Below are positions 17,351 through 64,000 of a stretch of DNA of 64,000 nucleotides, one piece after another. Source of the stretch: TPA_inf: Saccharomyces (Eukaryota); NCBI GenBank assembly GCA_000146045.2, contig BK006938.2:928001-992000 (forward strand). Reading direction: 5' to 3'. How positions within the stretch are numbered: the stretch's first letter is position 1; each line of letters starts with the position of its first letter. The position numbers and the translations under genes were made by a program. The notes under the pieces are model-generated. The model saw nothing but the letters and a program-made list of their open reading frames with translations, was not told where the DNA came from and did not search any database.

Positions 17351-17646
17351 TGTTGGAGTAAAAATCCAAAATATCATCTGTTTATTAGCATTCGTGTTAG
17401 TAGTATATTATCAAATGCGGTGTAAGAAGATGACATAAAGATTGAAAGACAGTCATCAAATGGAAGAGGAAATGCAACAACTCATGATGTAATAGGATAA
17501 TGTCACATAAAAAATGGAAGATGAGATTATAATATTATTACGTAAGAATACCGATCCTCTTTTGCGGGTTCTTATATCTCGGGGAGAGCTTCTAGTACAT
17601 TATTCATTCATAATATTATACCTTTACCAAGGATTGAATCCCAACA
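17351..17646 (+). mobile_element. Diverged solo delta LTR (Ty1/Ty2 family), about 296 bp
   Basis: TGTTGGAGTAAAAATCC...GGATTGAATCCCAACA aligns along its length with the intact Ty LTRs at 53171 and 58798, at roughly 65-70% identity with TG...CA termini. Flanks are gATCA / ATCAt, a possibly decayed TSD. Confidence 0.75.
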
Positions 17647-17954
17647 ATCATCAAATTATTCACCCCTTTCTCAGGTCACTGGTTTGAAGCAAGTAAACTA
17701 CATCTTCTTATACCGTATGCGATAATATACTAATAATATAAATACTACTAAATAGATGATGCTAGAATTCCATTAGAACTATAGTATACCATTTAAGTAT
17801 TTATATTGCTATTGTAATATCTTATGAAAAGTTAATGTTCATCTGTCCCAACAATCTCTAACAAGTACAAAGATGACACGAGTTATGAGGCGCTGTCATA
17901 GGAACCTCCAAACAAGTTTGATATTAATTATAAGAAACATATTTCAAGCCCTCG

Positions 17955-18295
17955 TGTTGTATTACGGGCTCGAGTAATACCGGAGTGTTTTGACAATCCT
18001 AATATAAACAGTCTTAGGGAAGTAACCAGTTGTCAAAACAGTTTATCAGATTAATTCACGGAATGTTACTTATCTTATATATTATATAAAATATGAATCA
18101 TACTAAGTGGTGGAAGCGCGGAATCTCGGATCTAAACTAATTGTTCAGGCATTTATACTTTTGGGTAGTTCAGCTAGGGAAGGACGGGTTTTGTCTCATG
18201 TTGTTCGTTTTGTTATAAGGTTGTTTCATATGTGTTTTATGAACGTTTAGGATGACGTATTGTCATACTGACGTATCTCATTTTGAGATACAACA
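17955..18295 (-). mobile_element. Sigma element (solo Ty3 LTR), 341 bp, reverse orientation
   Basis: Reverse complement reads TGTTGTATCTCAAAATGAGAT...GAGCCCGTAATACAACA, the sigma consensus. It ends 16 bp upstream of the tRNA-Tyr mature 5' end. A perfect 5-bp TSD CCTCG lies at 17950-17954 and 18296-18300. Confidence 0.92.
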
Positions 18296-18311: not shown

Positions 18312-18400
18312 CTCTCGGTAGCCAAGTTGGTTTAAGGCGCAAGACTGTAATTTATCACTACGAAATCTTGAGATCGGGCGTTCGACTCGCCCCCGGGAGA
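18312..18400 (+). tRNA. SUP2: tRNA-Tyr (anticodon GUA) with 14-nt intron at 18351-18364
   Basis: CTCTCGGTAGCCAAGTTGGTTTAAGGCGCAAGACTGTAA[TTTATCACTACGAA]ATCTTGAGATCGGGCGTTCGACTCGCCCCCGGGAGA is the canonical yeast tRNA-Tyr gene with A and B boxes. The SUP2 name assumes this is the chr IV tY(GUA) copy. Confidence 0.93.
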
Positions 18401-20517: not shown

Positions 20518-22284
20518 TTAATATATAATCTCATTACTGAGCTGTTTGCCGACGTTATATTTGTTCTTTACGGCTTCGGAAAAGATATTGCTATTCAAGG
20601 GATCATGTTTCCTGACGTATTTGTAAAGTTCACGTATCAATGATTCATCTTCAGCGGCACTAACAAAGGAGACAGCAGTGCCCTCATTTGCTGCACGACC
20701 TGTTCTACCAATTCTATGGATGTAGTCATCCATTTTTTTGGAAATCTGGAAATTGACTACCAAGGAAACATTAGGGATATCCAATCCTCTTGCGGCAACG
20801 TTTGTTGCGATCATGATTTGGACTTTGTTGGTGCGAAATAATTGCAAAGAATGTTCCCTTTGCTCTTGCGATTTAGAACCATGTAAAATCGTCACCTTCA
20901 TGTTGGTTTCCTTTTGAAACTTTTCTGCTAACCAATCAGCAGTTTGTTTGTAATTGATAAAAATTATTATTGGTGGATCATATTTAGCGACAATTGGCTT
21001 CAACTTTTTGAATTTGTCTTCGTCATTATCTGCATATTCCACAACCTGTTGAATCAAAGGTTCAGAACCCGTCTCAACCCCAATGGTTGCATAAACAGGC
21101 TTTTGCATGTATCCTGCTGCAATTTTTTCTATAACGGGTGTCATTGTAGCGGTAAACATCAGGGTTTGTCTATTCACAGCAGAGTCAGCATTTATATCGA
21201 CTTTAGTTAAAATGTTTGTTACTTGGTCCTCAAAACCTAAATCAATCATTTTGTCAGCTTCATCTAGTACTAATGTCTCCACCTGTTTCATCACAAGTAA
21301 GTGATTTTCTAAAGAGTCAATTAAACGTCCTGGAGTGGCCACCAGGATGTCACAACCCTCCGATAGAGAAAATGAAATTTCCTCCAAGGAGTGTCCACCA
21401 ACAATAGAAATTACTTTGCAGTCATAGTTGCTCTCTTTGGACCATATTTTTGTAACTTTTTGTGTTTCTTTTTGAATTTGCTGCACTAATTCCCTTGTTG
21501 GAGCTAAAATTAACGCTTTGGGGCCATCAATAATCTTCAAAGATGGTGGCCTTGGAGGTGACCTACTCATCTTGATTAGTATCGGTATTACAAAGGCCAA
21601 AGTCTTACCCGAACCTGTAGAGGCAACACCAAGAAAATCTCTATATTGTTTCATATTGCAAACGTTTGGAATAGTAATCCTTTGAATAGGAGTTGGTGAA
21701 GGAAATCGCAGCTCCTGTATAATAACACGTAACAAGTCCCTTGGTATTATATTGAGCTCTTCCCAATTTCTCAATGGATTTTCTACTGTCCCACCTTTTG
21801 TAACAATAGCGTAGTCTTCTTTTAGTATCCTCCAATCTCTCTCATTCATTTCGTGCAAGGACTTCTCAGTCCAATGCTTCCCCATATATGAAGATTCTGC
21901 AGCATTTTTAGGAGTCTTTCCCTTCCATAGCAAATCTATAGCTCTAGTTGAAACGATAGGATCATATCCGCTCAGAGTATCTTCGCTTTCATTCCAAGAA
22001 AAGTGAAATTTAGAGCCATTTTGCTTTGATGGATTTCTCTTCTTATCATTTGTTTCATTGAAAAAACTGTCATCTCTAGAGTTTACCTTTTTAATCTCCA
22101 CCTTAGCGCTATCACTTTGCGTAGGCGTCAAACTCTCTTCGTTCTCCTTCAAACGTTCTTGCTTAGATCTTTCTTGTTTATTCAAAAACCTAGGCTTGCT
22201 GATTTTACCTGATGTATTTTCATCTAGTCCTTTTTTCTTGTTTATACCAGCAATCAGCTGACTAACATCGATTGGTCTTGCCAT
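20518..22284 (-). CDS. PRP28: DEAD-box RNA helicase, U5 snRNP splicing factor, 588 aa
   Basis: Motifs ASTGSGKT, PTRELV, DEAD, FTAT, HRIGRTGRAG present; recognised as Prp28. Confidence 0.9.
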   Translation of the reverse strand: MARPIDVSQLIAGINKKKGLDENTSGKISKPRFLNKQERSKQERLKENEESLTPTQSDSAKVEIKKVNSRDDSFFNETNDKKRNPSKQNGSKFHFSWNESEDTLSGYDPIVSTRAIDLLWKGKTPKNAAESSYMGKHWTEKSLHEMNERDWRILKEDYAIVTKGGTVENPLRNWEELNIIPRDLLRVIIQELRFPSPTPIQRITIPNVCNMKQYRDFLGVASTGSGKTLAFVIPILIKMSRSPPRPPSLKIIDGPKALILAPTRELVQQIQKETQKVTKIWSKESNYDCKVISIVGGHSLEEISFSLSEGCDILVATPGRLIDSLENHLLVMKQVETLVLDEADKMIDLGFEDQVTNILTKVDINADSAVNRQTLMFTATMTPVIEKIAAGYMQKPVYATIGVETGSEPLIQQVVEYADNDEDKFKKLKPIVAKYDPPIIIFINYKQTADWLAEKFQKETNMKVTILHGSKSQEQREHSLQLFRTNKVQIMIATNVAARGLDIPNVSLVVNFQISKKMDDYIHRIGRTGRAANEGTAVSFVSAAEDESLIRELYKYVRKHDPLNSNIFSEAVKNKYNVGKQLSNEIIY

Positions 22285-52973: not shown

Positions 52974-53055
52974 CGACAACTGCAGGACTCGAACCTGCGC
53001 GGGCAAAGCCCAAAAGATTTCTAATCTTTCGCCTTAACCACTCGGCCAAGTTGCC
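52974..53055 (-). tRNA. tRNA-Ser (anticodon AGA), 82 nt, no intron
   Basis: Reverse complement GGCAACTTGGCCGAGTGGTTAAGGCGAAAGATTAGAAATCTTTTGGGCTTTGCCCGCGCAGGTTCGAGTCCTGCAGTTGTCG, the canonical yeast tRNA-Ser(AGA) with long variable arm. T5 terminator on its strand at 52969-52973. Confidence 0.92.
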
Positions 53056-53143: not shown

Positions 53144-53170
53144 TGTTGGAATAAAAATCCACTATCGTCT
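53144..53170 (+). mobile_element. 27-bp 5' fragment of an older delta LTR, interrupted by the Ty2 insertion; its continuation is at 59135-59149
   Basis: TGTTGGAATAAAAATCCACTATCGTCT directly precedes the Ty2 5' LTR. After the Ty2, ATCAACTAATAGTTA continues the delta alignment. Confidence 0.7.
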
Positions 53171-53461
53171 TGTTGGAATAAAAATCAACTATCATCTACT
53201 AACTAGTATTTACGTTACTAGTATATTATCATATACGGTGTTAGAAGATGACGCAAATGATGAGAAATAGTCATCTAAATTAGTGGAAGCTGAAACGCAA
53301 GGATTGATAATGTAATAGGATCAATGAATATTAACATATAAAATGATGATAATAATATTTATAGAATTGTATAGAATTGCAGATTCCCTTTTATGGATTC
53401 CTAAATCCTCGAGGAGAACTTCTAGTATATCTACATACCTAATATTATAGCCTTAATCACA

Positions 53462-54778
53462 ATGGAATCCCAACAATTACATCAAAATCCACATTCTCTA
53501 CATGGTAGCGCCGCTGCTTCGGTTACTTCTAAGGAAGTCCCATCAAATCAAGATCCGTTAGCCGTTTCAGCTTCCAATTTACCGGAATTTGATAGAGATT
53601 CCACTAAGGTTAATTCTCAACAAGAGACAACACCTGGGACATCAGCTGTTCCAGAGAACCATCATCATGTCTCTCCTCAACCTGCTTCAGTACCACCTCC
53701 ACAGAATGGACAGTACCAACAGCACGGCATGATGACCCCAAACAAAGCTATGGCCTCTAACTGGGCACATTACCAACAACCATCTATGATGACGTGTTCA
53801 CATTATCAAACGTCACCTGCGTATTATCAACCGGACCCACACTATCCGCTGCCACAGTATATCCCACCGCTGAGTACTTCCTCACCTGATCCAATCGATT
53901 CACAGAATCAACACTCTGAAGTACCTCAAGCTAAGACAAAGGTGAGAAATAACGTCTTACCACCACACACTTTAACATCAGAAGAAAACTTTTCTACATG
54001 GGTTAAATTTTACATCAGATTTTTGAAGAACTCTAATCTCGGTGACATAATTCCAAATGACCAGGGTGAAATCAAAAGACAAATGACTTATGAAGAACAT
54101 GCGTATATATACAATACCTTCCAAGCATTTGCCCCATTTCATTTATTGCCAACATGGGTAAAACAAATTTTAGAAATTAATTATGCTGACATCCTTACAG
54201 TCCTTTGTAAAAGTGTGTCCAAAATGCAAACTAACAATCAAGAATTAAAGGATTGGATAGCTCTTGCCAACCTTGAGTACGACGGAAGTACATCTGCTGA
54301 TACATTTGAAATTACAGTCAGTACGATCATTCAGAGGCTAAAAGAAAACAATATCAATGTTAGCGACAGATTGGCCTGTCAACTAATACTTAAAGGTCTA
54401 TCCGGTGATTTCAAATACCTACGTAATCAATATCGTACCAAAACGAACATGAAACTTTCCCAATTATTCGCTGAAATTCAATTAATATATGACGAAAATA
54501 AAATCATGAATCTAAATAAACCGTCCCAATACAAACAACACAGCGAATACAAAAATGTTTCTCGCACATCTCCAAACACGACTAACACGAAGGTTACAAG
54601 TCGTAATTATCATAGAACAAATAGTTCAAAACCAAGAGCAGCAAAAGCTCACAATATTGCTACATCCAGTAAATTCTCAAGGGTGAACAATGATCACATT
54701 AATGAATCAACCGTTTCATCACAATACTTAAGCGATGACAACGAACTTAGTCTTAGGCCAGCAACAGAAAGAATCTAA
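53462..54778 (+). CDS. Ty2 TYA (Gag), 438 aa; ATG lies inside the 5' LTR
   Basis: ORF track 53462-54778; Ty2-type Gag sequence. Confidence 0.9.
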
Positions 54779-57700
54779 GCCAACACGCACAATAGACTCG
54801 AATGACGAACTACCTGATCACCTTCTTATTGATTCAGGAGCTTCGCAAACGCTTGTCAGATCAGCCCATTATTTACACCATGCAACACCCAATTCTGAAA
54901 TAAACATAGTCGATGCTCAAAAACAAGACATTCCTATAAATGCCATTGGTAATCTTCACTTCAACTTTCAGAACGGCACCAAAACATCAATAAAAGCACT
55001 ACACACACCAAACATAGCCTATGATCTATTAAGTTTGAGTGAGCTGGCTAACCAAAATATTACTGCCTGCTTTACCAGAAACACTTTAGAAAGATCGGAT
55101 GGTACAGTACTAGCTCCCATAGTCAAACATGGAGACTTTTACTGGTTATCTAAAAAATACCTAATTCCTTCGCACATTTCAAAGCTAACAATAAACAACG
55201 TCAACAAAAGCAAAAGCGTAAATAAATATCCATATCCGTTAATACATCGAATGCTTGGACATGCTAACTTCCGAAGTATTCAGAAGTCTCTTAAGAAGAA
55301 TGCAGTTACATATTTGAAAGAATCGGATATTGAATGGTCTAACGCTAGCACATATCAATGTCCTGACTGTCTAATCGGCAAAAGCACGAAACATAGGCAT
55401 ATCAAAGGATCACGACTAAAGTACCAAGAATCATATGAGCCTTTTCAGTACTTGCATACCGATATATTTGGTCCTGTACATCACTTACCGAAAAGTGCAC
55501 CTTCTTACTTTATATCGTTTACAGATGAGAAAACCAGATTCCAATGGGTCTACCCATTACACGACCGTCGTGAAGAATCTATCCTCAATGTTTTTACATC
55601 GATATTAGCATTTATTAAGAACCAATTCAATGCTCGCGTTCTAGTTATCCAGATGGATCGTGGCTCCGAGTACACTAACAAAACTCTTCATAAGTTCTTT
55701 ACGAACAGAGGTATTACTGCATGCTATACAACCACGGCAGATTCTAGAGCACACGGTGTCGCTGAACGATTAAATCGTACTTTATTAAACGATTGTCGCA
55801 CACTGCTTCATTGCAGTGGTCTACCAAATCATCTATGGTTCTCAGCAGTCGAATTTTCTACTATAATCAGAAATTCATTAGTCTCACCAAAAAACGATAA
55901 ATCTGCAAGACAACATGCAGGTTTAGCTGGACTGGACATTACTACTATACTACCTTTCGGTCAACCGGTTATAGTTAACAACCATAATCCCGACTCGAAA
56001 ATACATCCTCGTGGCATTCCAGGTTACGCCTTACATCCGTCACGAAACTCTTATGGCTATATTATCTATCTTCCATCATTAAAAAAGACAGTAGATACTA
56101 CCAATTACGTTATATTACAAGACAACCAATCCAAATTGGACCAATTCAATTATGATACACTCACCTTTGATGATGATCTCAATCGTTTAACAGCCCATAA
56201 CCAATCTTTTATTGAACAAAATGAAACGGAGCAGTCATATGATCAAAATACAGAATCTGATCATGACTATCAATCGGAGATTGAAATAAACTCTGATCCT
56301 CTAGTGAACGATTTCTCGTCCCAATCATTGAACCCTTTACAATTAGACAAGGAACCAGTCCAAAAGGTACGTGCACCAAAAGAAGTTGATGCCGACATAT
56401 CTGAATACAATATTCTTCCATCTACTATACGATCTCGTACACCCCATATCATTAATAAAGAGAGTACCGAAATGGGTGGTACCATTGAATCAGATACTAC
56501 TTCACCTAGACACTCGTCTACCTTCACTGCACGAAACCAAAAGCGACCTGGTAGTCCCAACGATATGATTGATTTGACCTCACAGGATAGAGTTAATTAT
56601 GGACTTGAAAACATCAAAACTACACGTTTGGGTGGTACGGAGGAACCATATATTCAACGAAATAGTGATACAAATATCAAATACAGGACTACAAATAGTA
56701 CGCCCTCAATAGATGACCGTTCGTCCAACAGTGAATCCACTACTCCCATCATCTCCATAGAAACAAAGGCTGTATGTGATAATACACCCTCCATTGATAC
56801 GGATCCGCCAGAATATCGATCTTCTGACCATGCGACTCCTAATATAATGCCTGACAAATCCTCAAAAAATGTTACGGCTGATTCTATTCTTGACGACCTC
56901 CCACTTCCTGACTTAACTAATAAATCTCCTACGGACACTTCTGATGTTTCAAAAGATATTCCACACATACACTCTCGTCAGACTAATTCCAGTTTGGGTG
57001 GTATGGATGATTCTAATGTTCTGACTACTACCAAAAGTAAGAAAAGATCATTAGAAGATAATGAAACTGAAATTGAGGTATCCCGAGACACATGGAATAA
57101 TAAGAATATGAGAAGTCTGGAACCACCAAGATCGAAGAAACGCATAAATTTAATTGCAGCAATAAAAGGAGTGAAATCGATCAAACCAGTTCGAACGACC
57201 TTAAGATATGATGAAGCAATTACATATAATAAAGACAACAAAGAAAAAGACAGATATGTTGAAGCTTATCATAAAGAAATTAGCCAACTATTGAAAATGA
57301 ACACTTGGGATACAAACAAATATTATGATAGAAATGACATAGATCCTAAAAAAGTAATAAACTCAATGTTTATATTTAACAAGAAACGTGATGGTACACA
57401 CAAAGCTAGATTTGTTGCAAGAGGCGACATTCAACACCCCGATACATATGATTCTGATATGCAATCCAATACCGTACATCACTATGCACTGATGACGTCA
57501 TTGTCAATCGCATTAGACAATGACTATTATATCACACAGCTGGACATATCCTCTGCTTACTTATATGCTGATATCAAAGAAGAATTATACATAAGACCTC
57601 CACCACATTTAGGTTTGAATGATAAGTTACTACGTTTGAGAAAATCACTCTATGGTTTGAAACAAAGTGGTGCAAACTGGTATGAAACCATTAAATCATA

Positions 57701-58775
57701 TTTAATAAATTGTTGCGACATGCAAGAAGTTCGCGGATGGTCATGCGTATTTAAGAATAGTCAAGTAACAATTTGCTTATTCGTTGATGATATGATATTA
57801 TTCAGCAAAGACTTAAATGCAAATAAGAAAATCATAACAACACTCAAGAAACAATACGATACAAAGATAATAAATCTGGGTGAAGGTGATAACGAAATTC
57901 AGTACGACATACTTGGATTAGAGATCAAATATCAAAGAAGCAAGTACATGAAATTAGGTATGGAAAAATCCTTGACAGAAAAATTACCCAAACTAAACGT
58001 ACCTTTGAACCCAAAAGGAAAGAAACTTAGAGCTCCAGGTCAACCAGGTCATTATATAGACCAGGATGAACTAGAAATAGATGAAGATGAATACAAAGAG
58101 AAAGTGCATGAAATGCAAAAGTTGATTGGTCTAGCTTCATATGTTGGATATAAATTTAGATTTGACTTACTATACTACATCAACACACTTGCTCAACATA
58201 TACTATTCCCCTCTAGGCAAGTTTTAGACATGACATATGAATTGATACAGTTCATATGGAATACGAGAGATAAGCAATTAATATGGCACAAAAGCAAACC
58301 TGTTAAGCCAACAAATAAATTAGTTGTTATAAGCGATGCATCGTATGGTAACCAACCGTATTATAAATCACAAATTGGCAACATATATTTACTTAATGGA
58401 AAAGTGATTGGAGGAAAGTCGACAAAGGCTTCGTTAACATGCACTTCAACTACAGAAGCAGAAATACACGCAGTCAGTGAAGCTATACCGCTATTGAATA
58501 ACCTCAGTCACCTTGTGCAAGAACTTAACAAGAAACCAATTATTAAAGGCTTACTTACTGATAGTAGATCAACGATCAGTATAATTAAGTCTACAAATGA
58601 AGAGAAATTTAGAAACAGATTTTTTGGCACAAAGGCAATGAGACTTAGAGATGAAGTATCAGGTAATAATTTATACGTATACTACATCGAGACCAAGATG
58701 AACATTGCTGATGTGATGACAAAACCTCTTCCGATAAAAACATTTAAACTATTAACTAACAAATGGATTCATTAG
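54735..58775 (+). CDS. Ty2 TYB (protease-integrase-RT-RNase H), made as a Gag-Pol fusion by +1 frameshift at CTTAGGC (54752-54758)
   Basis: Open +1 frame overlapping the TYA end. Motifs: DSGAS (protease), integrase HHCC/DDE region, YxDD-like VDDM (RT) and RNase H at the C-terminus, KWIH stop. Confidence 0.9.
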
Positions 58776-59533
58776 ATCTATTACATTATGGGTGGTATGT
58801 TGGAATAAAAATCAACTATCATCTACTAACTAGTATTTACGTTACTAGTATATTATCATATACGGTGTTAGAAGATGACGCAAATGATGAGAAATAGTCA
58901 TCTAAATTAGTGGAAGCTGAAACGCAAGGATTGATAATGTAATAGGATCAATGAATATTAACATATAAAATGATGATAATAATATTTATAGAATTGTATA
59001 GAATTGCAGATTCCCTTTTATGGATTCCTAAATCCTCGAGGAGAACTTCTAGTATATCTACATACCTAATATTATAGCCTTAATCACAATGGAATCCCAA
59101 CAATTACATCAAAATCCACATTCTCTACACGTCTATCAACTAATAGTTATGAGATATATGTGGGTAATTAGATAATTGTTGGGATTCCATTGTTGATAAA
59201 GGCTATAATATTAGGTATACAGAATATACTAGAAGTTCTCCTCGAGGATTTAGGAATCCATAAAAGGGAATCTGCAATTCTACACAATTCTATAAATATT
59301 ATTATCATCGTTTTATATGTTAATATTCATTGATCCTATTACATTATCAATCCTTGCGTTTCAGCTTCCACTAATTTAGATGACTATTTCTCATCATTTG
59401 CGTCATCTTCTAACACCGTATATGATAATATACTAGTAACGTAAATACTAGTTAGTAGATGATAGTTGATTTTTATTCCAACATACCACCCATAATGTAA
59501 TAGATCTAATGAATCCATTTGTTTGTTAATAGT

Positions 59534-62500
59534 TTAAATGTTTTTATCGGAAGAGGTTTTGTGTTTGTGCCATATTAATTGTTTATCTCTAGTGTCCCAC
59601 ATGAATTGTATTAACTCATATGTCATGTCTAAAACTTGCCTAGAGGGGAATAGTATATGTTGAGCAAGTGTGTTGATGTAGTATAGTAAGTCAAATCTAA
59701 ATTTATATCCAACATATGAAGCTAGACCAATCAACTTTTGCATTTCATGTACCTTCTCTTTGTATTCATCTTCATCTATTTCTAGTTCATCCTGGTCTAT
59801 ATAAAGACCTGGTTGACCTGGAGCGCTAAGTTTTCTTCCTTTTGGATTCAAAGGTACGTTTAATTTGGGTATTTTCTCAGTTAATGAGTTTTCCATACCT
59901 AATTTCATGTATTTACCTCTTTGATATTTGATTTCTAAGCCAAGTATGTCATATTGAATTTCCTCATCACTTTCGCCTAGATTTATAATCTTGGTGTCGT
60001 ATTGCATCTTAAGCTTCTCTATAATTCTTTTGTTTGAATTTAGATTTTTGCTAAACAATACCATATCATCTACGAATAAACAAATTGTCACTTGACTGTT
60101 TTTAAATACGCATGACCATCCACGAACTTCTTCCATACCACATTGTTGTATCAGGTATGATTTGATAGTTTCGTACCAGTTCGCTCCACTTTGTTTCAAT
60201 CCATAAAGTGATTTCTTCAAACGTATCAACTTATCATTCATTCCTAAATGTGGTGGAGGTCTTATGTATAATTCTTCTTTGATGTCTGCATACAAATATG
60301 CCGAAGATATGTCTAATTGTGTAATATAGTAGTTATTGTCTAATGCAAGTGACAGGGATGTCATTAATGCATAGTGATGTACGGTATTGGATTGCATGCC
60401 TGAGTCGTAAGTGTCAGGATGCTGAATATCACCTCTTGCAACAAATCTAGCTTTATGAGTACCGTCACGTTTCTTGTTGAAGATAAACATTGAGTTTATT
60501 ACTCTTTTAGGGTCTATTTCTTTTCTGTCATAATATTCGTCAGTGTCCCAAGTTTTCATCTTCAACAGTTGATTGACTTCTTTGTGGTATGCCTCGATAT
60601 ATTTTTCTTTTTCTTTAATATCTTTATTATAGGTGATTGCCTCATCGTATCGTAAGGTTGTCCGTATTGGTTTGATTGATTTTACTGCTTTTACAGCTGC
60701 AATCAGGTGAATTCGTTTCTTCGATCTCGGAGGTTCTAAACTACGCATATTCTTAGTATTCCATGTGTCTCGTGATACCTTAATTTCAGTTTCATTATCT
60801 TCTAATGATCTTTTCTTACTGTTGATAGTAGTATAGGCATTAGAGTCACCAATACCACCCAAACTGGAATTAGTTTGACGAGAATTTATCGGTGGGAGTT
60901 CTTTAAATGGGTCAGGGAATTCGGTAGGAGATTCTGGAGGTAGATCAGGGAGTGGGAGATCAGCGATGATAGATTCCTCGGTATTCTGTTCAGAAACAGT
61001 AGTTGGCGTTTTGATAGGAACAATATTGTGCGATGAATTATTTTCCGGTGGAGAAGCATCGATTGAAGGTGAACGGTGTATAATCCTTTTCTCAGTCTCT
61101 TGGTCACTTATCTGCGGAACAGTTTTGTTGTTGGTACCACCCGTACTGGATATTGGTACGTTTGTATGATTAGTCTCATTTTCACTGTACGAGTCTGAGT
61201 GTCTGAAATCTTTAGATTTACTGGCGTGCGACGACTCATGTGTGTTAGATTGGGACATGGGAGCAAGTAAAGGAACATTTAATTTATGCATACCACCCGA
61301 ACCGGTACTCTCGATATTGGAAATTTGGGGGGTGCTAGATCTCTTCTTTGATGGAAGAATATTAGATTCAGATATGTTGGGGTCAACTTCTCTGGGTGCG
61401 CGAATATTGGTTTTAGAAACACGTTTCGAATCTTCAGTATGAGTTGACGGAGGTGTGGAATCGGTTGGACTCACAGCTTTTGAAAGGACATTTCTCGGTT
61501 GCTCAGGATGTAGTTCAATGTCGGATTGGAAGTCATGGTCAGATTCTATGTTAAGATCATTGGATTCTTGGATCTCATTTGACGCAATGAACGAATGATA
61601 TGAAGCAGTTAAACGGTTTAAGTCTTCATCGAAAGTGAGTGCGTCGTAATTGAATTGATCTAATCTGGATTCCTTGCCCTGAAGAATAACATAGTTAGTT
61701 GTATCTACTGTCTTCTTTAAGGATGGAAGATAGATGATATATCCATAAGAGTTTCGAGACGGATGTAGAGCGTAGCCTGGGATGCCACGAGGATGTATTT
61801 TGGAGTTAGGGTTGTGATCATTGACGATAACAGGTTGACCGAAAGGTAACAAAGTACTGATATCAAGTCCTGCCAAGCCAGCATGTTGTCTTGCAGATTT
61901 TTTGCTTTTAGGTGAAGCTAGTGAATTTCTCACAATAGTAGAAAATTCGATTGCAGAGAACCATAAATGGTTCGGTAAACCACTACATTGCAGTTGAGTA
62001 CGGCAGTCATCTAATAAGGTACGGTTTAGCCGTTCAGCGACTCCATGTGCTCGGGAATCCGCTGTGGTTGTATAGCATGGAGTTATACCATTTTTTTCAA
62101 GGAATTTATGGAGAGTTCTGTTAGTATACTCAGAACCACGGTCCATTTGTATAACCAAGACACTGGCCTGAAACTGGTTTTTAATAAAAGCTAGTATCGT
62201 AGTAAAAACATCGAGGATAGAGTCCTCGCGACGGTCGTGTAATGGATAAACCCAACGGAATTTTGTTGTCTCATCAGTAAATGAGATGAAATAGGATGGT
62301 GCACTATTTGGTAGGTTGTGAACTGGACCAAATATGTCAGTATGTAGGTATTGAAAGGGTTCGTATGAATTTTGGTATTTTAGTCGTGAACCTTTGATAT
62401 GTCTGTGTTTGGTGCTTTTGCCGATTAAACAATCAGGACATTGATAGTCAATAGCACTAGACCAGTCGACATCTGATTCGTTAAAATACGTGATGGTGTT

Positions 62501-63047
62501 ATTTTTAAGTGAGTATCGAATTGTCTGTGCATTGGCATGCGCAAGCATTCGATGAATGAAAGGATAAGGATATTTGCGTGTACTTTCACTTGTATGGACA
62601 TTATTGATGGTGGGTACGGAGATATTTGATGGAAGCAAGTACTTTTTAGATACCCAGTAAAAGTCTCCATATTTTACGATAGGTGCAAGTACAGTGCCGT
62701 CAGACCGTTCTAAGACGTTTTTGGTAAAGCATGCTGTGATATCTACTGCAGCCAATTCATTCAAACTGAGTAAGTCATAGGCTATGTTAGGAGTGTGCAA
62801 TACCTTTATTGATGTTTTGGTGTTGTCCTGGAAGTGAAATTGTAGGTCACCAATAGCGTTAATTGGTATATTTCTTTTTTGAGCATCAACTACGTTTATG
62901 TCAGGATTAGATGATGCTGAGTGTATGTGATGAGCAGATCTTATAAGGGTTCGTGATGCTCCTGAATCGAGAAGGAGGTGTCCAGGGAGTTCATCATCAG
63001 AATGATTAGTATGATTTACTGTAGATTCAGTAAGTTTCTGGCCTAAG
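59534..63047 (-). CDS. Ty1 TYB, entered by +1 frameshift at CTTAGGC (complement at 63041-63047); ends prematurely at 59534 because of an internal deletion in RNase H
   Basis: Frame reads ...[14 protein letters not shown] where the intact Ty2 copy continues for about 160 more residues. The C-terminal Pol codons ([17 protein letters not shown]) are still present downstream but out of frame. Confidence 0.8.
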
Positions 63048-64000
63048 ATGAAGGTCGTGCTTATTGTTCAATTGAATCGGTTCAGTAGTTGATTTACTGA
63101 TGGAATCGTTGTCCGTGCTGGGAGAGTTATTAGATGTGGATACATTGTGAGCCCTGGCTGTTTTCGATTTCGAATTATTTGTTTTTTGAGGATTCCGAGC
63201 TATAACTTTGGGTTTGGTTGTATTCGTATAGCTGCGAGAATCATTCTTCTCATCACTCGGATTTCTCCTGTAATTAGGTTTACTGTTTCTCGATCCCTGT
63301 TGTTCTTCATAAATAGCATGGATATCTAAGAACAGTTCAGCGACTGTCATATTTAGATGTCGATGACGTGTGTAGCGTAAAAATTTATATTCGCCAGATA
63401 GACCTCTCATAATTAATTGGCATGCGACCTTGTTATTGATATGAATGCCATTATTGTTCAGTCTGTCGATAATGTTTGTGACTTTTGTTTCAAATGCATC
63501 TGCAGGTGTACTGCCATTATATTGCAAATTTGCCAGGGTCACAATGTCGTTTGCCTCTTGGGTATCAGATTGCATTTTTTCAATACTTTTGGAAAGAATT
63601 TTCATGATATCCGTATAATCAACGGATAGGATGTCTTTGACCCAGGTAGGTAGGAATTGAGAGGGAGCAAATATTTGAAAAGTGTTATACAAGAAGGTGA
63701 GTTCATCATCAGTGATCTGACGTACGGGTTTTCCGTTTACTGTCGGAATAATACCACCGAGATTCGAGTTTTGTAAAAATTTGATGTATGTTTTAACCCA
63801 ATTTGGAAAGTCATTAGGTGAGGTTAACATTGGTGGTGGTCTGACATATTTTTTAGTGGATGTCATATCAGAGTCCGCTGAGGATGAATCAGTAAATGTA
63901 TTACCTGACTCAGGTGATGGAGTGCTCAGAGGCGTTCCAACTGATGATGGATACTGCGGAAACTGTGATTGTGGCCCAGGTGGAAAGTACATAGGCGACA
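63027..64000 (-). CDS. Ty1 TYA (Gag), C-terminal 321 codons in window (N-terminus beyond 64000)
   Basis: Ty1-type Gag translation ending ...[13 protein letters not shown]. Confidence 0.88.

Follow-up and report, generated by a model that had tools for sequence, protein, structure and literature searches.

A Ty2 and an oppositely oriented Ty1 on Saccharomyces cerevisiae chromosome IV are both nested in a single older delta long terminal repeat (LTR). We consider it likely, with a probability of roughly 85%, that this one delta was hit by the Ty2 and then by the Ty1, and that the resulting inverted pair is the recombination hotspot HS4. Both elements were already present in the reference annotation, the hotspot has been dissected by experiment, and the biology is ordinary. 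The additions made here are small and of modest value: a refinement of the annotation, by which both elements are nested in one delta and the HS4 spacer is itself Ty-derived, and a corrected order of events.

Locus and tRNA gene setting

The elements lie in a window (the whole stretch of DNA that was analysed) of 64,000 nucleotides. The gene order HSP78 (811 aa), YAP6 (383 aa), SWM1 (170 aa), EXG2 (562 aa) and tS(AGA) was read in the window, and the coordinates of five LTR/Ty features agree with Files S2/S3 of Carr et al. 2012, which identifies the locus as the pair at 981-992 kb of chromosome IV (sacCer2 coordinate = window coordinate + 927,997). The pair is the already annotated inverted YDRWTy2-3 / YDRCTy1-3, the known HS4 hotspot. 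Carr et al. 2012 list chrIV_u8+_TY2 at 981168-987126, which with the offset of 927,997 equals the Ty2 of the window, and chrIV_u9-_TY1 at 987155-992639, with its internal part in two fragments.

The insertions are on the upstream side of the tRNA-Ser(AGA) gene, which was annotated using ARAGORN. A divergent tRNA-Gly(GCC) gene is 314 bp away from it in empty alleles. Upstream distances from tS(AGA) and tG(GCC) are 115 and 199 bp, respectively, for the Ty2 site, and 130 and 184 bp for the Ty1 site (distances to tS(AGA) are those of the empty alleles). Ty1 and Ty2 are targeted to the region upstream of Pol III genes, and both sites fall within a few hundred base pairs upstream of a tRNA gene. This suggests that both insertions were targeted by tRNA genes. 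That Tys insert repeatedly, and in nested fashion, ahead of tRNA genes is standard knowledge in yeast, and the interval between tS(AGA) and tG(GCC) is an insertion hotspot, with eight or more positions hit in other strains. Independent LTR/Ty insertions were found at flank positions 102, ~118, 122, 131, 188, 194 and 229, and SK1 has two Tys of its own in the interval from EXG2 to YDR262W (PMC3757047).

The Ty2 and Ty1 elements

The earlier note on this DNA had described a full-length Ty2 with a perfect target-site duplication, and its coordinates were confirmed (Table 1). The two LTRs are identical (332/332, 0 mismatches), and CGTCT, at 53166-53170 and 59130-59134, directly abuts their TG...CA termini as the outermost flank, again as the note had it. 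With direct LTRs of ~332 bp, TG...CA ends, a 5-bp duplication and a single CGTCT in empty alleles, the element has the structure of the Ty1/copia type. It has a primer-binding site, a polypurine tract, a TYA/TYB +1 frameshift and the order protease-integrase-reverse transcriptase. The fused Gag-Pol is 1770 aa long without internal stops and contains the Pfam domains TYA, Pol_BBD, rve and RVT_2. The element is distinguished as Ty2 rather than Ty1 by its divergent gag, the hypervariable region of pol and its shorter LTR (332 vs 334 bp); a Ty2 LTR one base shorter is among the criteria that separate Ty2 from Ty1 in Carr et al. 2012. Identity to the neighbouring Ty1, taken per 100 nt, ranges from 41 to 74% over gag and the hypervariable pol segment, and from 77 to 100% over most of the 3' half of pol.

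From 59150 onward, an LTR in reverse complement is followed by a polypurine tract and then the 3' end of TYB. This order identifies a Ty1 3' LTR lying tail-to-tail with the Ty2 across a 20-bp spacer, in agreement with the earlier note. The Ty1 5' LTR lies outside the window, its end probably ~642 bp beyond it, and the element has two LTRs and a 5-bp duplication: one copy of AGTTA occupies 59145-59149, and the other was read past the 5' LTR, both in L011 and in S288C fragment st46. This Ty1 lacks 425 bp of the RNase H region that are present in the full Ty1 of L008 and in the Ty2 of the window; the deletion shifts the frame and moves the TYB stop to 59534. It thus lacks the complete pol, including RNase H, of a full-length autonomous Ty1.

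Both LTRs of the Ty1 combine a Ty2-like U3 with a Ty1-like R-U5. In the 3' LTR, the U3 has 2 differences from the Ty2 LTR in the first 259 nt, and the last 20 nt of the R-U5 are variant (U5 tip AATTACCCACATATATCTCA). Between the two LTRs, the first 314 positions contain a single difference and the last 20 contain 8, a pattern partly confirmed by the S288C alignment in Carr et al. 2012. The same combination of U3 and R-U5 characterises the Ty1/Ty2 hybrid-LTR elements of Jordan & McDonald, as cited by Carr et al. 2012; relative to that description, the Ty1 studied here additionally has the RNase H deletion and U5 tips that differ from each other. The ends of the Ty2 and the Ty1 share 99% identity. 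Gene conversion acting locally on the two adjacent elements was considered as the source of this identity, and was ruled out by the distal Ty1 5' LTR, which has the same Ty2-like U3. The hybrid LTR is therefore older than the Ty1 insertion.

Table 1. Features of the inverted Ty pair and its surroundings, in window coordinates.
Feature	Position	Strand	Remarks
tRNA-Ser(AGA) gene	52974-53055	-	ARAGORN; upstream side towards insertions
Left delta piece, positions 1-27	53144-53170	+	Contiguous with 59135-59149 piece in Ty-free strains
Full-length Ty2 (YDRWTy2-3), 5959 bp	53171-59129	+	LTRs, open Gag-Pol, Pfam, Carr et al. coordinates
Ty2 5' LTR	53171-53502	+	332 bp
Ty2 TYA	53462-54778	+	438 aa
Ty2 primer-binding site TGGTAGCGCC	53503-53512	+	Next to 5' LTR
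Ty2 +1 frameshift heptamer CTTAGGC	54752-54758	+	
Inverted-repeat core	58719-59562		Arms 58719-59057 / 59224-59562, 339 nt, 99% complementary (repeat search)
Ty2 TYB end	58775	+	
Ty2 polypurine tract GGGTGGTA	58790-58797	+	Next to 3' LTR
Ty2 3' LTR	58798-59129	+	332 bp
Spacer, 20 bp	59130-59149	+	Older delta positions 23-42; CGTCT 59130-59134; AGTTA 59145-59149
Ty1 3' LTR, 334 bp	59150-59483	-	Reverse complement of Ty1-type LTR
Ty1 internal part (YDRCTy1-3)	59484-64000	-	Runs past window end
Ty1 TYB stop	59534-59536	-	
Ty1 425-bp deletion junction	59563/59564	-	
Ty1 TYA stop	63027-63029	-	
Ty1 frameshift heptamer	63047-63041	-	

Two insertions in one delta

Joining 53144-53170 to 59135-59149 gives a 42-nt sequence, TGTTGGAATAAAAATCCACTATCGTCTATCAACTAATAGTTA. 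Aligned without gaps to nt 1-42 of the Ty2 LTR, it agrees at 36 positions; none of 20,000 shuffles matched as well. It is identical (42/42) to the old chromosome IV delta st45 (sequence from Carr et al. 2012). The proposal in the earlier note that these 27 bp and 15 bp rebuild the 5' end of a delta was therefore correct. In strains without the Ty2, the 42 nt are unbroken and contain one CGTCT, which establishes both the target-site duplication and the identity of the delta well beyond chance.

The same note had read the 42 nt as a truncated stub beside the Ty1, but the delta does not end there. In the empty alleles it runs on through position 42 as a remnant of 137 bp, contiguous and without later insertions, which aligns to LTR positions 1-136 at 80%, as a solo delta remnant would. 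In S288C, the remaining 95 bp are found beyond the Ty1, after the second AGTTA. The delta is unbroken in empty alleles, and in S288C its remaining part follows AGTTA past the Ty1; it was therefore the Ty1 that divided it. The pieces of 27 and 15 bp and the 100-bp fragment past the Ty1 are thus one delta, and both elements are nested in one LTR. The nesting went without annotation here because the pieces are just 27 and 15 bp long.

The far-side junction of the Ty1 is outside the window and was taken from L011 and from the published S288C alignment (Carr et al. 2012). In L011 it reads ...TTCCAACA, AGTTA, TATTATCAATATATT...; this assembly is indel-rich (98.8% identical with 122 gaps), and the junction was cross-checked against S288C fragment st46 (sacCer2 992640-992739, Carr et al. 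2012). Fragment st46 starts AGTTATATTATCAATAT / AGTTATATTATC and finishes ...GCAAGAATTG, the same as the empty alleles. Beyond the window, the split-delta model would accordingly run from the Ty1 5' LTR end ...TTATTCCAACA through AGTTA and TATTATCAATATATTATCATATACGG... to GCAAGAATTG, followed by a sigma fragment and tG(GCC).

The history that we favour would start between the divergent tS(AGA) and tG(GCC), from a 137-bp remnant of an older delta that is on the plus strand and nearly fixed in S. cerevisiae. The integration machinery of Ty1/Ty2, which is directed to Pol III genes, would have struck this remnant twice. The Ty2 would have inserted after delta position 27, duplicating CGTCT. On a Ty2-bearing chromosome, the Ty1 would then have entered in reverse orientation just past delta position 42, duplicating AGTTA and dividing the delta into a left part of 42 bp and a right part of 95 bp beyond the Ty1. 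The outcome is two elements of ~5.5-6 kb, tail-to-tail, with 20 bp of old delta between them and ends that form a near-perfect inverted repeat.

Allele survey and order of insertion

Among 23 assemblies, two carry both elements, two carry only Ty2-derived sequence, 18 carry neither, none carries the Ty1 only, and one (L006) was not scorable, having a Ty2 5' LTR at the site followed by a run of N. The state with Ty2 and no Ty1 rests on two assemblies among the matches listed. In L007/L018, the Ty2 is found at the site that it has in the window, again flanked by CGTCT, and the delta is uninterrupted at the Ty1 position; the L007 element has an LTR identical to that of the window (332/332) and an internal part that is 99.8% identical. 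In L024, a solo LTR identical to the window Ty2 LTR (332/332) has CGTCT on both sides, with no Ty1, and its left flank has 0 mismatches to S288C over 10,144 bp. The comparison of strains proposed in the earlier note had envisaged alleles in which the Ty2 is absent and the Ty1 remains, or both are absent. Doubly empty alleles were found, but Ty1 without Ty2 occurred in 0/23 assemblies and Ty2 without Ty1 in 2/23.

To our knowledge, the loss of a Ty1 without trace, leaving no solo LTR, is not an expected event. Given the Ty2-only and solo-Ty2-LTR alleles, the lack of a Ty1-only allele among the 23 assemblies and the unexpectedness of a precise Ty1 loss, the allele classes suggest that the Ty2 came before the Ty1. 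With this order, the HS4 palindrome would have arisen when the Ty1 inserted.

The earlier note had proposed the reverse, with a Ty1 next to a delta that had earlier been cut down to a 42-bp stub, and a Ty2 inserted into this stub later, and had taken the intact Ty2 duplication to imply this order. The integration sites at delta positions 27 and 42 do not overlap, and the intact duplication is therefore silent on the order. A Ty1-first history would agree with the identical LTRs of the Ty2 and the differing LTRs of the Ty1, and with the low-coverage SGRP data of Carr et al. 2012, in which SK1 is called as Ty1 present and Ty2 absent and the Ty1 is the more frequent element (8/15 vs 7/20). It is contradicted by the 137-bp continuous delta with its remainder beyond the Ty1, and by the allele classes above, and we regard it as very unlikely. 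What stands of the proposed history is the insertion of the Ty2 into a pre-existing delta with a genuine duplication, and sequential retrotransposition into the same few base pairs. The allele classes would say nothing about the order in the S288C lineage if the Ty2 of L007 and L024 were an independent insertion at the same hotspot nucleotide. The 314-bp interval has indeed been struck at many positions, some only 1 bp apart (130 vs 131), but the identical position, orientation and CGTCT duplication, together with the LTR, internal and flank identities of L007 and L024, make such a coincidence highly improbable.

A further alternative concerns how the Ty1 arrived. Reverse transcription should give identical U5 copies, and the LTR pair of the Ty1, matching at 313/314 positions and then differing at 8/20, does not conform. 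Recombination of Ty1 cDNA or a genomic Ty1 with a solo LTR at delta position 42, or a later gene conversion, would account for the unequal outer 20 nt. However, a minus-strand solo LTR at position 130 was present in no allele seen, and the perfect AGTTA duplication suits one integration event. Post-insertion gene conversion between Ty1 copies accounts for the block as well as recombination with a solo LTR does, and leaves the history of the locus unchanged. We therefore consider an arrival other than by simple integrase insertion unlikely.

Taken at face value, the SGRP calls favour Ty1 first; the strain table of Carr et al. 2012 also gives BC187 as Ty2 present and Ty1 absent, so that BC187 and SK1 contradict each other and the calls are weak evidence. 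These calls blend the S288C Ty1 with other Tys of the same orientation 1-8 bp away (e.g., L008 and L021). A naive LTR clock would likewise make the Ty1 older (1 site plus the 8/20 block, against identical Ty2 LTRs). Dating of the two elements by LTR divergence was rejected, as 0 differences in the Ty2 and 1 difference plus a recombination-like block in the Ty1 are not clock-like.

Inverted repeat and the HS4 hotspot

Inward of the 99% complementary arms (Table 1), weaker pairing (83-90%) continues up to 59121/59158. The predicted single-stranded DNA fold of 58990-59290 is a single long hairpin (-120.7 kcal/mol, z = -26). St Charles & Petes 2013 (PMC3616911) mapped the HS4 peak of mitotic recombination to YDRWTy2-3/YDRCTy1-3, and found that the activity is absent on the homolog without the pair and is lost upon deletion of the Ty2 or widening of the spacer by 2 kb. 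Their locus is the same as ours, with a Watson Ty2, a short spacer and a Crick Ty1 at 981-992 kb, polymorphic between strains, and there is no biological difference; the spacer is given there as ~25 bp of non-Ty sequence, whereas we find 20 bp consisting of older delta positions 23-42. The inverted-repeat structure behind HS4 was confirmed here, and the activity itself is taken from PMC3616911; by those experiments, it is the inverted repeat that serves as the hotspot, probably via a hairpin.

The outer 20-nt block of the Ty1 3' LTR lies at the centre of the palindrome. It could conceivably be the scar left by repair of a break at the tip of the HS4 hairpin, with another delta supplying the patch, a reading that we consider quite doubtful. 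If true, the HS4 fragile site would already have broken and been repaired in the S288C lineage.

HS3 (YDRWTy2-2 / YDRCTy1-2, chromosome IV 872 kb) is also an inverted Ty2/Ty1 pair. Its Ty2 is annotated by Carr et al. 2012 as nested in st45, an old delta belonging to the same subfamily as the one at HS4. The Ty1 of HS3 lies outside the st45 delta with a spacer of ~100 bp or more, whereas at HS4 both elements are in the same delta with insertion sites 15 bp apart. FS2, an inverted Ty1 pair on chromosome III, is likewise a case of closely spaced inverted Tys that promote breakage and recombination. As it is cited in PMC3616911, FS2 has a spacer of ~280 bp and needs replication stress (low DNA polymerase alpha), whereas HS4 is active in wild-type cells.

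The Ty pair and its locus

A Ty2 and a Ty1 lie tail-to-tail in the window, 20 bp apart, to the right of a gene order that we take to be HSP78-YAP6-SWM1-EXG2-tS(AGA)D3 of chromosome IV. The Ty2 has two 332 bp LTRs with no mismatch between them, a 438 aa TYA and a Gag-Pol fusion that is open throughout (1770 aa), with Pfam domains TYA, Pol_BBD, rve and RVT_2. The 5' LTR of the Ty1 is located about 640 bp past the window end. The coordinates in the earlier note are exact, including those of the Ty2 and its flanking CGTCT pair.

An offset of 927,997 aligns the window features with the tables of Carr, Bensasson and Bergman (2012), confirming the locus: the Ty2 is chrIV_u8+_TY2 (YDRWTy2-3, 981168-987126) and the Ty1 is chrIV_u9-_TY1 (YDRCTy1-3, end at 992639) (PMC3511429). 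With the same offset, three LTR remnants directly upstream of a tRNA-Tyr gene coincide with YDRWdelta12, an unnamed delta and YDRCsigma3 (PMC3511429). The locus, both elements, their polymorphism and the functional consequence are all already published; what this analysis adds is a minor refinement of the annotation and a correction of the insertion history.

Coordinates of the features in the window
Feature	Position	Strand	Details
LTR-remnant cluster	17351-17658 (+), 17701-17760 (-), 18221-18276		two deltas and a sigma-like piece
tRNA-Tyr	18312-18400
Four genes left of the Ty pair		-	811, 383, 170 and 562 aa; ClpB-type AAA, bZIP, Apc13 and cellulase domains, respectively
tRNA-Ser(AGA)	52974-53055		between the four left genes and Ty2
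CGTCT	53166-53170, 59130-59134		touching both Ty2 ends
Ty2	53171-59129	+	LTRs 53171-53502, 58798-59129
Ty2 primer-binding site	from 53503	+	TGGTAGCGCC
Ty2 +1 frameshift heptamer	54752	+	CTTAGGC
Ty2 polypurine tract	from 58790	+	GGGTGGTA
Inverted repeat arms	58719-59057, 59224-59562		339 nt, 99% complementary
AGTTA	59145-59149		window copy of Ty1 duplication
Ty1 LTR	59150-59483	-	plus strand is reverse complement of 334 bp LTR, then polypurine tract, pol 3' end
Ty1 pol stop	59534	-	moved by deletion
Ty1 deletion junction	59563/59564	-	ACAAAA microhomology

Both elements interrupt an older delta

Joining the 27 nt before the Ty2 to the 15 nt that follow CGTCT on its right side gives TGTTGGAATAAAAATCCACTATCGTCTATCAACTAATAGTTA, which agrees with the start of the Ty2 LTR (first 42 nt) at 36/42 positions (0 of 20,000 shuffles score as high) and with another old chromosome IV delta at 42/42. 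Alleles without either element (e.g., those of assemblies L002, L004 and L017) read ...CACTATCGTCTATCAACTAATAGTTATATTATCAATATATTATCATATACGG..., with one CGTCT and one AGTTA. Their delta remnant runs on to 137 bp, after which come a Ty3 sigma fragment and, on the plus strand, a tRNA-Gly(GCC) gene; 314 bp separate the divergently oriented tS(AGA) and tG(GCC) genes. The single CGTCT and AGTTA and the 137 bp delta show that the Ty2 duplication is real and that the 42 nt belong to a delta, as the earlier note had proposed in placing the Ty2 inside an older delta, flanked by a CGTCT target-site duplication.

The note had also proposed that this delta was a truncated stub of about 42 bp next to the Ty1. 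Truncation to 42 bp ahead of the Ty1 insertion is ruled out, as the delta continues to 137 bp in empty alleles and its remainder lies beyond the Ty1, after AGTTA. The S288C fragment chrIV_st46+ (992640-992739), directly after the Ty1, starts with AGTTATATTATCAATAT and ends with GCAAGAATTG (PMC3511429), both of which match empty alleles exactly. Another assembly, L011, has the same Ty2-spacer-Ty1 layout, with a 100% identical left flank and many small indels inside its Ty elements, and its far-side Ty1 junction reads ...TTTTTATTCCAACA, AGTTA, TATTATCAATATATTATC.... Together these sequences indicate that the Ty1 inserted after delta position 42, splitting the delta, and has its own 5 bp duplication, AGTTA. 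Carr et al. annotate only the 100 bp right-hand delta piece, leaving the 27 bp and 15 bp pieces without annotation, and label both elements un-nested (PMC3511429), while St Charles and Petes call the spacer non-Ty sequence (PMC3616911).

Three divergent haplotypes have 91-92% identity in the flank nearest the tRNA gene; of these, L009 and L016 have a full-length older delta of about 310-320 bp, and that of L015 aligns to about 146 bp. In S288C-like haplotypes the remnant stops at 137 bp, abutting the sigma fragment beside tG(GCC).

Order of insertion

The locus was retrieved from 23 S. cerevisiae assemblies with EXG2, SWM1, YAP6 and the Ty2 TYA of the window as queries, and each allele was re-oriented and tiled against the window LTRs, internal domains and one empty allele. 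Both elements are present in two assemblies, Ty2-derived sequence only in two and neither element in 18, and one (L006) has an N gap; none of the 23 carries the Ty1 alone. In L007/L018 (GCA_947369885.1) a Ty2 occupies the same site in the same orientation with the same CGTCT (LTRs 100% and internal part 99.8% identical), and the delta after it is uninterrupted, with no Ty1. L024 (GCA_029991815.1) has a solo LTR identical to the window Ty2 LTR (332/332) with CGTCT on either side and no Ty1; its left flank has 0 mismatches to the window in 10,144 bp.

The earlier note took the intact Ty2 duplication to mean that the Ty1 came first. Lying 15 bp apart, the two target sites have no bases in common, so neither insertion could have disturbed the duplication of the other, and the structure itself is silent on order. 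A Ty1 is not expected to depart without leaving a solo LTR. Given the Ty2-only and solo-Ty2-LTR alleles, and no Ty1-alone allele, we infer that the Ty2 insertion preceded that of the Ty1. An initial Ty1 insertion is weakly indicated by low-coverage SGRP calls that score SK1 as Ty1 only, but the same calls score BC187 as Ty2 only (PMC3511429). Furthermore, SK1 has its own Ty pair between EXG2 and YDR262W (PMC3757047), and SGRP calls cannot separate the S288C Ty1 site from other minus-strand Ty insertions 8 bp (L008) or 1 bp (L021 and L025) away.

In L006 (GCA_000977295.3), a Ty2 5' LTR at the S288C site follows the tRNA-Ser gene and leads into the N gap. Past the gap, a divergent plus-strand Ty is present with its 3' end, the LTR of which joins the delta at about position 50; it may be an additional insertion or a recombinant.

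Structure of the Ty1

The Ty1 LTRs combine a Ty2-like U3 (2 differences in 259 nt from the neighbouring Ty2) with a Ty1-like R-U5. Local conversion of the U3 by the neighbouring Ty2 was rejected because the same U3 is found in the distal 5' LTR, which places the element in the known class of Ty1/Ty2 hybrid-LTR elements. Compared with a full Ty1 (in L008) and with the Ty2, 425 bp of its RNase H region are missing, and this deletion shifts the frame of a pol that is otherwise open (1177 codons). Carr et al. classed this copy as Full/Active (PMC3511429); judged from its sequence, the deletion and frameshift probably make it non-autonomous.

The LTR pair has one difference in the first 314 positions and eight in the last 20 (window 59150-59169, AATTACCCACATATATCTCA, versus L011 5' LTR at about 20678-20697, CAACATTCACCCATTTCTCA). 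Reverse transcription should yield identical U5 copies, yet 8 of 20 positions differ, which suggests later recombination or gene conversion at the U5 tip. The same single difference, and the canonical start of the 5' LTR U5 tip, can also be seen in the S288C alignment published by Carr et al. (PMC3511429).

Inverted repeat and the HS4 hotspot

The ends of both elements form an inverted repeat, with weaker inward pairing of the arms as far as 59121/59158. As single-stranded DNA, 58990-59290 is predicted to fold into one long hairpin (-120.7 kcal/mol, z = -26). The 99% complementary arms reach 79 bp beyond the LTRs into both internal domains; the Ty1 of this hybrid type therefore has Ty2-type sequence at the pol 3' end as well as in U3.

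This inverted pair is the mitotic recombination hotspot HS4, whose activity is specific to the homolog bearing the Ty pair and is lost on Ty2 deletion or on widening of the spacer by 2 kb, the Ty2 promoter LTR being dispensable (PMC3616911). The locus was also observed as a rearrangement breakpoint (PMC3102749). If the Ty2 came first, the palindrome, and hence the hotspot, was born with the Ty1 insertion.

tRNA-gene setting

Ty1 and Ty2 are known to target their integration upstream of Pol III genes. The Ty2 and Ty1 sites are upstream of tS(AGA) by 115 and 130 bp and of tG(GCC) by 199 and 184 bp, respectively. Further independent LTR or Ty insertions occur across the strain panel at flank positions 102, about 118, 122, 131, 188, 194 and 229, which shows that the interval between the two tRNA genes is an insertion hotspot. 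L023 (GCA_905220325.1) has a plus-strand Ty1 188 bp past the tRNA-Ser gene, with an internal part 99.3% identical to that of the window Ty1. The LTR of this element belongs to the old delta type (97% identity to the remnant, 85% to the window Ty1 LTR), so full-length elements with LTRs of this subfamily still exist in some strains.
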